Notes under the pieces: generated by a model
Told to the model about the DNA's origin: nothing
Database searches by the model: none
Seen by the model: the letters and a program-made list of their open reading frames with translations, nothing else
Translations under genes and position numbers: made by a program
In this document: one piece after another, positions 47,650 through 51,978 of the stretch
Numbering within the stretch: position 1 is the first letter of the stretch
Layout: every line of letters begins with the position of its first letter
From: Dictyostelium discoideum
Taxonomy: Eukaryota
Direction of reading: 5' to 3'
Assembly: GCA_000004695.1 (NCBI GenBank)
Contig: CM000154.2
Location: forward strand, 1,504,001 to 1,568,000
DNA length: 64,000 nucleotides

Positions 47650-50600
47650 TTAATTTTGTAATGGATAAACATCATATAACTGAGAGGAGGAATCAAGTTT
47701 AGAACCTGAATAAAAGTAATAGGTATTTTGGAAAGTTGCAAAAGGCATAGAAGGAGAGCATAGTTCCTCAATATCGGAAATAAAATCTAAACCAAAAGTT
47801 ACATGATCACCATTATCAATACCAAATCTACCACTATGGTAAGGGTTTCCATCTTTATAAGCTCCATCATATGGGATCTAATTATTAAAATTGTTTTTAA
47901 TAGTTAGTAGAAAATAAAAAGGAGACACTATTGTAAAAAAAAAAAAAAAAAAAAAAAATACTTACCCAACCAATTGATTGATGATAAAATTCACATTTAA
48001 CGTGAGGTTGAGTATCTTTAATAGCAATTTTACTTCCTCTACCATATAAAAGACGAACTGGAATATTATTATATCTTAAAATACTTGAAAAGAACCAAGA
48101 ATGAACACCACAATCACCATGTCCAAATTTAAAAGCCTCAGTTGGTGTACCATCATGACTATATGGATTTTGATATTTCAAATTCTTATAAATAAACAAT
48201 GAAACTCTATATGCAAATTCTAGTATACCTTCAATATCTCCACCATCATTATGAGGGTATAATCTGTTAGCTTCAATGAATTGTTGAAATTCTGGTGTAT
48301 TAAAATTAATCTTTGTTGTAGGTCTTAAATAAACTTCAATCTCTTTATCTGTAATTGGTTCAACTTCAATTATTTCATTTGGATCTTTAACTTCGGTTAA
48401 ATGAACTTTATAAAGATCTACATCAACTCTATACTTTGCTATTGTAGACTTTATATTATGCACACTTTCAAATTTATGACTAACCCTATAAATATCGTTA
48501 TGTGATGACCCAATAATTTCAGAGTCTACCAACAATTCATCATTACCACCATTATGAAGTGTAAATGATGAATATCTAACTTGTTGATTATTAATTGATG
48601 GTGGTACTGATAAGTATTGTTTTGTCCAAGAAAGCTCTAAATAAAAAAAAAATTAAAAAAAAATTAATATTGAATAATTCTCATCATATAAAATACCATA
48701 AAAATAACATACTTGTATTTGAATAGGTCATAACATTTTGATATACAGCAGTAACTGAATTGTTATATATTTTTGAAAGTTTAAATCTTTTATTTCCCCA
48801 TACTAAATAATTTAAATTTATATTAATATTAATTGTAAGTAGTAAAAATAATTAAAAAAAAAAAAAAAAAAAAAAGGATAATTATTATAATTACTTTTTT
48901 TATGAAGTGCATAGTCATTAATTAGTTGATCAACATGTGGGTTTCTTGGAATTCCTAGATTAGATTTAAAATCATAAGGTGCTGAGGAAGATGATTGAGT
49001 TGATGATGTTGTTTGTGGGTTTTGAATCATTTTTGAAAGTGAATTTGCAAAACCTCTAAAAGGGTTACTTTGTTGTTTTTGTGATTGTTGTGGTTGAGTT
49101 TGTGGTTGTGGTTGTGGTTGAGGTTGAGGTTGTATTTGTGGTTGTTTCATCATTGGTCTTATTGGTTGTTGAATTGGTTTTGGTGTTTGTGTTTGTGTTG
49201 AAGATAATGATGGTGATTTTTTTAATAATTTAACATCATATTCATGGGTAAAGAGTAAACGTTCAGGATAAGGACCAGTCTTATAATAATTACCAAAGCC
49301 TACAAGTTGGAAAACAGTGAAAGCATTTGAAAAATCTTTTATATCTGAAATGAAATCCATACCATAGGTGATGAAATGACCTTGATCTTTACCAAATAAA
49401 TAATCACAATAACCATTTTTTGATTTACTAGTGGCTTCAATTGGTACCCAACCTATTGAAGAAATGTAGATTTCAGGTTTAACATGAGTTTGAGCATCAC
49501 CAGGTTTATCTAATTCTGCATTTCTACCAAACAATATTCTCGTTGGTACATTTGAATAACGCATAATTGATGCGAAAAATATTGAATGACAACTACAATC
49601 ACCATATTTTGCCTTAAAAGTTTCAATTGGTTTACCACTTAGGCCATGTGGGTACTTGTAATCTAAATTCTCTGTCATCCATAAAAGAATTCTATAGGCA
49701 AAACATAAAACACTCTCCATTGTACCATCATCAAATGTTTTTGGATAAAATCCATTCTCTTCTACAAATTCAGCAAATTCTTGTGTATTGAAATCCAAAC
49801 GATCAGTTGGTCTCAAATAAATCTTAATTTCATTATCTGTAATTGGTTCAACCTCTACAACTTCATTTGGATCTTTAACTTCAACTAATCCAACCTTGTA
49901 TAAATCCACTTCAAGAATCTCTTTAAAAACATAATGAGTTTTATATGGATTTTCTGGTGAAAGATAATTAAAATACCATATCTTTTGATGTGATGAATCT
50001 GTTAATTCTGGTTCAATCAATTCAATATTACTATCTCCATCATAAAGTTTCATTGTTGCACTTCTTATTATTTGATTATTAATTGATTCTGGTTTTGGCA
50101 TCCAAACTTTTACATTTGATAATGCTATTTTTTTAAAAATTATTATTATTATTAATTATTATTATTATTAATATTATTATTATTATTATTATTATTATTA
50201 TTATTATTATTATTATTATAAAATACTTACTGCACTCTGGTTTATATTTAATAACAACTTTATATTCAGCAGTAACTGAATAGTTATAGGTTTTAACTAA
50301 TTTAAATTTTTTATCCCATACTAATAGAAATATAAAAATGAAATGGTATTAGTTAAATTATTCCTGATTGAATTTATAATAATAATAATAATAATAATAA
50401 TAATAATAATAATAATAATAATAATAATAATAATAATAATAATAATAATAATAATAATAATAATAATAATAATAATGATTATAAATGATAGTTACATAAT
50501 TTATGAATTTGATGATCATTTATTAATTTACCTAATGGAGGTGCTGTTGTTGGTAAAGTGTTATTAGATTTATAAATACTTTCATCAGTTCTTTTAAAAG

Positions 50601-51978
50601 GACTAAATGCATTTAATTTAGAAACTGATGTTGCTGGTTGAATTGGTTGAGTAGGTTTGGATAGTGCATTTGGATTAATTGGTCTTGGTGGTGGTGCATT
50701 AACTGTTTGCTTCAAAGTGGTTGGTATTGGTTGTGCAGGAATTGGTTGTGAAGTCTGTGGCTGTGGTTGTGGTTGTGGTTGTGGCTGTGGTGGTAATTTA
50801 AATGTCTGAGATGCTGGTCTTTTAGATAATGGTACAGTTGTTGGAGTTGGTGTTGAAGTTGTTGCTGAAGCTGTTGTTGGGGTTGAATTTACAGAAACAG
50901 GTTTGAGCTTAAATGGGAATGTGGCTGGTTTTTGTGGTTGTTCTTGTTGTGGTTGTTGTGGTTGTTGTTGTTGTTGTTGTTGAATTGGTTGTGGTGGTAA
51001 TTTAAATGTTTGAGAAGGTGGTCTTTTAGAAAATGGTACTACTGGTGGTGTATTTGTTGTTGTAGTTGAATTTAATTGTGGTAGAGGAGCAGGTCTTAAG
51101 GGAGTAGTTGAAGTTGTTGGTGCTGTAGTTGAGTTTGATTGTGGTAGAGGTGCAGGTCTTAATTGTTGTGATGAATTTAAATTATTTGTTGGTTGTTGTT
51201 GTTGTTGTTGTTGTTGTTGTTGTTGTTGTTGTTGTTGTTGTTGTTGTTGTTGTAATGGTGGTAATTTAAATCCTTGAGATGGGGGTCTCTTTGAAAATGG
51301 ATTTGTTGGTGATGTTGTTGCTGCTGCTGCTATTGGTGATGTTGGTTTTTGTTGATTACTATTACTATTATTATTATTATTTATAAAATCATTATTTGGT
51401 AATAAATCAGAAACTGGACTTATATAATTTATTTGATTTTGAAGTAATATTGAAGAATTTGATAAAATTTGATCAAATAAATGAAATAAACTATTGAATG
51501 ATAATTGAATATTAATTAATGGTATATCTAAATCTGAAACTTTCCTATCAAAACATTGTTTAACATTTGTGAATAATTTCGATTTTAAATCAATGTATTC
51601 ATTCTTTTTATTTGAATCTGCAGATGTTAAAAGTAATGATTGTAAATCGTCAATCACTTTAATTTTATTATTACAATCTTTAATATGCAAACAGAAACTT
51701 GAAATTACTTTAAAGTTTTCAGCTTGATTTAACTCCCAATCTGTGTAACCATTTTGAACTAAATCCAATACATCTTTTGAATATTGAGATAATGGATGTT
51801 GTAAATCGTAATATCTCTTCAAATTATTACAAATACTATCTGGTGATAAATATAACTCCTTTATGTAGCCACAATATGATTTTAACGATATTTCAATCGA
51901 TGTTGAACTATCTGATAATTGCTTAAATTCTTTTTTTAAAATATCATAATTTTTATCTATGGTTTTTATGTGTGTTGA
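47650..51978 (-). CDS. Large protein with two tandem transglutaminase-like (Cys-His-Asp core) modules, P/Q/T-rich linkers and an unknown N-terminal domain. At least 6 exons: 51978-50532, 50320-50231, 50124-48895, 48802-48713, 48636-47966, 47877-47650. The start codon lies in an unresolved upstream exon.
   Basis: What the ORF track shows as two genes is one gene. HKK + a|GTAATT (48895) splices to exon D (I)WGNKRFKLSKIYNNSVTAVYQNVMTYSNT. This parallels exon B (V)WDKKFKLVKTYNYSVTAEYKVVIKYKPEC. Each short exon is followed by a module with the conserved core YGDCSCHSIFFASIMRYSNVPTRILFG...HVKPEIY..IGWVPIEAT (copy 2: HGDCGVHSWFFSSILRYNNIPVRLLYG...HVKCEFY..IGWV). All junctions are phase-consistent. 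(AAT)n and (ATT)n tracts lie in introns at 50377-50477 and 50145-50221. Confidence 0.65.

Follow-up and report, generated by a model that had tools for sequence, protein, structure and literature searches.

Two open reading frames (ORFs) that a mechanical list keeps apart in the genome of Dictyostelium discoideum are very probably exons of a single seven-exon gene, encoding a BAR-type head and two tandem bacterial-type transglutaminase-like modules. The gene lies in a 64,000-nt stretch of GenBank assembly GCA_000004695.1 (contig CM000154.2, positions 1,504,001 to 1,568,000 of the forward strand; hereafter the window, with positions counted from its first letter). The corrected model occupies 52087..47650 on the minus strand, which also carries all of its features described below, and reads as one uninterrupted frame of 1267 codons. 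Along these 1267 amino acids (aa) a BAR domain of ~180 aa is followed by a P/Q/T-rich linker of ~300 aa, module 1, a P/Q linker of ~95 aa and module 2. Confidence in the gene structure and the domain anatomy is high. An earlier reading made from the letters of this DNA (the sequence-only reading) had spliced the ORFs by hand into one gene and proposed a tandem duplication inside it, an interpretation that our comparisons support at the sequence level. The single-gene, two-module model is already known from the GenBank annotations of D. discoideum and D. purpureum, and the finding as stated changes little: hand splicing reproduces the existing model, one donor site aside. What the comparison adds is a settled exon structure, including the first exon, and a flag on a suspect patch at 52025-52497.

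The junction that decides between one gene and two is intron 4 (48803..48894; 92 nt, GTAATT..TTTAG, 92% A+T), which joins unit 1 to unit 2, each unit being a short exon with the module that follows it. The 427-aa ORF (48818-50101, minus strand) had been read as continuing past its apparent end, and it does so: CAT AAA AAA A is followed by the donor GTAATT at 48895/48894, and a phase-1 join to tatttag/TATGGGG at 48802 keeps the frame. The two exons that had been paired as counterparts, at 50231-50320 and 48713-48802, are both 90 nt long, AG/GT bounded and in phase 1-1; mini-exon 1, (L)WDKKFKLVKTYNYSVTAEYKVVIKYKPEC, encodes the first beta strands of its module, and mini-exon 2 reads (I)WGNKRFKLSKIYNNSVTAVYQNVMTYSNT. 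All six introns of the model are GT..AG, 76-175 nt long and 85-97% A+T, and the spliced model of 3804 nt has no internal stop. Stop codons make up 7.9% of codons in the window, and a frame this long is therefore not open by chance: the chance probability is ~0.09 for an open frame of 30 codons and ~1e-45 for one of 1267. An AATAAA stands at 47615, 35 nt past the final stop, and none was found in the 92-nt intron 4.

Relatives of the gene show the same organization. A word-indexed homology search with unit 2 gave no match, although close relatives exist; 877 relatives were recovered by an exhaustive profile search that used the two contiguous module exons. The best profile match is KAM9958835.1 (P0001), a D. 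discoideum protein of 1247 aa whose locus in GCA_054859355.1 (L001) is syntenic with the window and 95.9% identical in DNA (hereafter the 96%-identical genome). Mapped onto that locus, the protein falls into seven exons with junctions as in the window, including HKK/IWGNKRF. A second genome, GCA_054883475.1 (CM142511.1; L003), was reached via an exact 498-aa neighbouring protein. Its identity to the window over 5.2 kb is 99.46%, exons 2-7 do not differ at all, and its annotation places a single 1267-aa gene across the span of the corrected model. Our model is equated with this annotated product because the two have the same span, the same length and identical exon DNA; when Met is placed at position 1, the 1267-aa model has no exact match in the protein cluster collection, and an exact look-up of the 427-aa ORF gives no recorded gene product. 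D. purpureum GL871139.1 (L002) carries XP_003289970.1 (1254 aa), whose two modules are joined by a 70-nt phase-1 GTAAGT..AG intron at HKK/LWDKRF. All three gene models share locus and synteny (a divergent glycosyltransferase-like gene and a convergent polyketide synthase, PKS) as well as two modules, the D. discoideum models also share the seven-exon structure, and every GenBank model is labelled 'hypothetical protein'. Against the 96%-identical genome there are no frameshifts, and every folded part is under purifying selection: the ratio of nonsynonymous to synonymous divergence (dN/dS) is 0.31 overall, 0.085 in the BAR domain, 0.46 in module 1 and 0.25 in module 2.

Two lines of evidence are independent of gene finders: a motif that spans the junction, and predicted structure. 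The motif L(I/L)ND..xH(K/R)x(L/I/M)W..K.FKL directly precedes the module in all eukaryotic homologues, single-module ones included; motif-bearing single-module proteins occur in D. purpureum, D. citrinum, Acytostelium, Polysphondylium, Synstelium and Stenamoeba. Intron 4 splits this motif, leaving DQLINDYALHKK (pre-module motif 2, 48896-48931, the end of exon 4) in the upstream exon and IWGNKRFKL in mini-exon 2. In an AlphaFold model of an orthologue's unit 2 (predicted local distance difference test score, pLDDT, 94; predicted template-modelling score, pTM, 0.93) the junction falls within helix 17-25, and the mini-exon supplies strands 29-49 of the N-terminal beta domain. Annotations, conserved intron position and junction-spanning motif thus give indirect support to one gene rather than two, as had been claimed from the letters.

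Several points weigh against this reading or against parts of it. All compared gene models are computational predictions and may share one bias, and the modelled structure is that of a 95%-identical orthologue's unit 2 rather than of the window's own spliced sequence. The start codon of the window reads TTG, and the window differs from the relatives at 52087 and 52082. In module 1, Glu758 stands in place of the Asp of the family, and dN/dS (0.46) is higher there than in any other folded part. As for the head, the Pfam BAR family stays below threshold, with a best E of 0.11 in one of nine family members, and Foldseek matches to the BAR fold have weak E-values (0.026).

Among the alternatives, we consider it unlikely that the locus makes different products: either retention of intron 4, yielding BAR plus module 1 and ending ...HKKSNYNNYPFFFFFFFNYFYYLQLILI at a stop, or skipping of the unit 1 cassette, symmetric in phase 1-1, which would splice exon 2 straight to mini-exon 2 and yield BAR plus module 2. 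Both isoforms are frame-compatible, since the donors of exons 2 and 4 and both mini-exon acceptors are all in phase 1, and reading into a retained intron 4 extends the open frame by 25 codons. Either isoform is, however, purely a frame prediction, and module 2 is under purifying selection (dN/dS 0.25), hence translated into protein in one form or another. In Dictyostelium, alternative splicing is uncommon, which also weighs against such products. Even if made, they would supplement the two-module model and not replace it.

A different challenge comes from the first exon. Exon 2 contains no Met, and a first exon is therefore needed, but a scan of 51900-52760 found no ATG-containing first exon compatible with the acceptor at 51978. 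Exon 1 was recognized through comparison with KAM9958835.1, which begins MISN. The exon (52076..52087) consists of four codons, the start and ISN; it reads ATG ATA TCA AAT in L001 and L003 and ATG ATA TCT AAT in D. purpureum, with GT next in all three, and in the window TTG ATT TCA AAT followed by a GTAAAT donor. If the TTG is genuine, the gene would be a null allele or a young pseudogene in this genome. On that side stand the TTG ATT at 52087-52082 against ATG ATA in three relatives, the lack of any other in-frame ATG before residue 538, and an in-frame TAA 8 codons upstream of the TTG with no alternative ATG exon found. We nevertheless regard loss of the gene as improbable. The window and L003, otherwise near-identical, differ by 28 substitutions, every one of them within 52025-52497 (~470 bp), which holds the TTG; exons 2-7 (3.8 kb) show none. 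Furthermore, all but one or two of these substitutions copy the neighbouring base, with (AT)n becoming a T-run and G or C within an A-run becoming A, a pattern that suits a patch of sequence error better than real mutation, and at those sites that were checked the 96%-identical genome sides with L003. The patch, which covers exon 1 and the promoter region common to this gene and the divergent gene at 52680, thus looks like miscalled bases in the source sequence of the window and not like a true loss of the start codon.

That the region holds two separate genes, BAR and module 1 ending at the TAA at 48818 by reading through intron 4 and module 2 standing alone, is highly improbable even though the mechanical list gives separate ORFs of 427 and 212 aa and a stand-alone module protein is known elsewhere (P0006, 324 aa, beginning MWDKK), since mini-exon 2 has its first in-frame ATG at codon 24 of 30 while homology with mini-exon 1 and all homologues begins at its first codon, it lies only 92 nt from the upstream exon, LINDYALHKK, which is conserved and belongs to module 2, sits in that upstream exon across the intron, and three annotations model one gene.

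The single gene differs from the one first spliced by hand mainly at the end of exon 2 (50496..51978; acceptor tttttag/TCA, donor T/GTAACT, phase 1), which encodes the BAR-like domain, the P/Q/T-rich linker and GKLINDHQIHKL. The six-exon model of the sequence-only reading does translate into 1251 codons without a stop, but its donor at 50531 is replaced by GTAACT at 50495. Exon 2 ends at 50496, not 50532, because the GTAACT donor retains the homologous motif GKLINDHQIHKL (pre-module motif 1, 50497..50532), which aligns with DQLINDYALHKK and with all eukaryotic homologues. All homologues conserve the motif in these codons, both GenBank models contain it, and in D. purpureum unit 1 it is coding sequence that no intron interrupts. 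A GTAAAT donor is indeed present at 50531 in a compatible phase but is probably unused; the 12 codons from it to 50495 encode the homologous motif. Exon 4 (48895..50124) completes module 1, continues through the second P/Q linker and DQLINDYALHKK, and ends at the phase-1 donor GTAATT. Exon 6 (47966..48636) encodes module 2 as far as ...HQSIGW and exon 7 (47650..47877) its end, with the stop TAA at 47650-47652; the junction between them reads GGT TGG, donor GTAAGT ... AG, ATC CCA.

Each module is a complete transglutaminase-like unit of ~340 aa, in which the short helical motif LINDxxxHK leads into an N-terminal beta domain, its first strands encoded by the mini-exon, and then a papain-like Transglut_core. 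The proposed internal duplication of mini-exon plus module is borne out, as the two units align from their first residue with 46% identity (141/309, E 1e-87). Both also match Transglut_core (PF01841), as the sequence-only reading expected, with scores of 53.1 and 54.6 bits (curated gathering cut-off 23; E 4e-14 and 1.5e-14, respectively); the match in module 1 covers 49433-49714. The Cys-His-Asp core that had been assigned to both modules holds for Cys and His in both units and for Asp in unit 2, but the third residue of unit 1 is Glu (GWVPIE). In module 1 these residues are Cys705 (49595-49597), His742 (49484-49486) and Glu758 (49436-49438), and in module 2 they are Cys1144 (48110-48112), His1180 (48002-48004) and Asp1196 (47866-47868). 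The catalytic Cys and His are invariant in 72 aligned homologues. Glu758 is shared by the window and the 96%-identical genome; D. purpureum module 1 and most homologues have Asp, and some dictyostelid paralogues carry Asn or Cys at the catalytic-Asp position.

Structural and profile comparisons point to bacterial proteins as whole-module counterparts. In Foldseek searches with the orthologue unit 2 model, the papain-like fold matched 3isr at E 1e-14 over ~330 columns, TgpA at 3e-5 and the animal transglutaminases TG2 and TG3 at 4e-4; the sequence profile of the module matched 6g49 at E 1.6e-6 and 3isr at E 6e-4. For 3ISR, a putative transglutaminase-like cysteine protease of Cytophaga hutchinsonii, the whole protein matches the whole module, both the beta domain and the Cys-His-Asp core, with a template-modelling score (TM) of 0.63 normalized to the target and an alignment that spans from the mini-exon strand to the C-terminus. 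Secreted planctomycete proteins of ~350 aa (e.g., WZP00810.1, Isosphaeraceae) likewise match one entire module. Identity between such bacterial homologues and the modules of the window is 14-25%. The bacterial proteins have a single module and a signal peptide; the LINDxxxHK helix, BAR domain and linker of the window gene are absent from them. TgpA of Pseudomonas aeruginosa (6G49) and the animal enzymes TG2, TG3 and factor XIII share the fold of the catalytic core and the Cys and His motifs, but there the match is confined to the core (TM <=0.34), and neither the flanking domains nor the cellular context is the same. The mini-exon segment, which like the motif is conserved in all eukaryotic homologues, corresponds in the alignment to the first strand of the bacterial homologues. 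Pfam Bact_transglu_N gave no match at E<=1 in either unit, nor at E<=0.1 in five bacterial homologues, and in the predicted structure the likeness of the module to the bacterial N-terminal beta domain is one of fold only. The closest relatives of the module outside Amoebozoa are the secreted planctomycete proteins, which suggests that an ancient transfer of a bacterial gene may have brought the module in.

The N-terminal head resembles BAR domains of the amphiphysin type. It spans aa 5-185 (51436..51978), and a profile of nine dictyostelid N-termini matched the amphiphysin BAR domain 9bqx at E 2.7e-6 and BIN1 (2fic) at 0.007, with several others at 0.3-1. An AlphaFold2 (AF2) model of the domain (pLDDT 84) shows three long helices at 9-44, 62-118 and 122-174, and its best Foldseek matches are the BAR domains of amphiphysin, arfaptin and endophilin (TM 0.57-0.64, probability 1.0). 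The linker that follows carries three PxxP-containing motifs of the form (F/L)SKRP(P/A)SQxFKLPP. Three copies of FSKRPPSQ(G/T)FKLPP had been reported there; two are exact and the third is a variant. By regular-expression search of the model protein, copy 1, FSKRPPSQGFKLPP, which has PxxP, lies at aa 232-245 (51256..51297), copy 2, FSKRPPSQTFKLPP, at aa 320-333 (50992..51033) and the variant copy 3, LSKRPASQTFKLPP, at aa 388-401 (50788..50829). Amphiphysin, BIN1 and Rvs167, the N-BAR proteins, share with the window protein an N-terminal three-helix BAR-type domain followed by a proline-rich region; they end in SH3, whereas the window protein ends in two transglutaminase-like modules. Elsewhere the module has other partners: P0010, P0012 and P0015 (Acytostelium, Polysphondylium) and P0013 (Stenamoeba) have the same motif and module behind a different N-terminus of ~140-230 aa, in which no Pfam match was found, and P0005 (Synstelium) runs on into DBC1 and LAIKA domains and may be a fused gene model.

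These 'hypothetical proteins' unite a BAR domain undetected by Pfam with one or two complete bacterial-type transglutaminase-like modules. A literature search found no description of this family or of a BAR plus transglutaminase-like architecture, which thus appears undescribed in the literature searched and is a modest lead. From the parts, the BAR domain would dimerize and place the protein on curved membrane, the PxxP-containing linker would recruit partner proteins, and the two modules would either bind substrates at the membrane as scaffolds or act there as cysteine-dependent enzymes, whether protease, transglutaminase or deamidase. The most likely reading of the biochemical role is a scaffold or enzyme associated with membranes, although we offer it only tentatively and from predicted models. 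It is likewise possible, though doubtful, that the proteins form an undescribed dictyostelid or amoebozoan family in which a bacterial-type, catalytically intact module is coupled to an amphiphysin-like BAR domain via a PxxP-rich linker, making a curvature-targeted protease, transglutaminase or deamidase that, in the D. discoideum/D. purpureum lineage, would have two active sites through an old tandem duplication.

Yeast offers an analogy for such a combination. Cyk3 has an SH3 and a transglutaminase-like domain, and its partners in cytokinesis are the F-BAR protein Hof1 and the PxxP protein Inn1 (PMC2711614). The likeness, a cytosolic transglutaminase-like domain in a network of BAR-family and PxxP elements, is one of analogy only, and the SH3 domain of Cyk3 has no Pfam match in any part of the window protein. 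Were the analogy to hold, one chain would unite the BAR, PxxP and transglutaminase-like elements that yeast spreads over Hof1, Inn1 and Cyk3.

The duplication of the modules is old. In a neighbour-joining tree the unit-1 orthologues of the window and D. purpureum group together with 99.6% bootstrap support and the unit-2 orthologues with 95.8%; duplication is therefore older than the split between D. discoideum and D. purpureum. The linker tails before the two units are collinear as well, following the order (QP)n ... SK ... KSN ... LIND..HK with a score of 116 against a maximum of 88 in 500 shuffles. The duplicated unit therefore covered ~440 codons, running from the (QP)n linker tail and the motif through an intron, the mini-exon and a second intron to the module. 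Hexamer repeats coding for (QP)n lie at 50755-50790 and 49087-49145, and the duplication plausibly originated by unequal recombination in or near such repeats. A codon comparison of the mini-exons (14 identical, 1 synonymous and 14 nonsynonymous) gave no usable signal.

Intron positions differ between the two species. The intron after the mini-exon is present in both units of D. discoideum and in neither of D. purpureum; both units of D. purpureum instead have an intron at GD/C, in place of the post-mini-exon introns. These differences between species therefore imply either parallel intron losses or exchange between units. Upstream of its two full modules, the D. purpureum model also has an additional, incomplete copy of parts of module 1 that is almost identical to them (aa 242-342 of XP_003289970.1, itself partial; L002 3793-4459). 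It is joined by unusual introns (GTTTCA..., 523 nt), and is either a recent partial third duplication or an artefact of the gene model or assembly. GCA_054859355.1, although labelled D. discoideum, differs from the window at this locus by 4% in DNA and 5% in protein (dS 0.07). A DNA divergence of 4% is far above what is usual within D. discoideum, and this genome may represent a cryptic sister lineage.

The window has 23% G+C, with long poly-Q/N tracts and introns that are short and very A+T-rich, and is thus DNA of the Dictyostelium type. Introns 2 and 3 of the gene consist mostly of (ATT/ATA)n arrays, with 36 copies at 50376-50484 and 27 copies at 50139-50219, and both are much shorter in the 96%-identical genome (175 vs. 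109 nt and 106 vs. 82 nt, respectively). On one side the divergent glycosyltransferase-like gene starts at 52680, and on the other the convergent PKS ORF ends at 47579. The stops of the two convergent genes are separated by only 70 bp (47580-47649), exactly the distance noted by the sequence-only reading, and the AATAAA at 47615 lies inside this gap. Because of that position, the 3′ ends of the transcripts of the two-module gene and the convergent PKS probably overlap.

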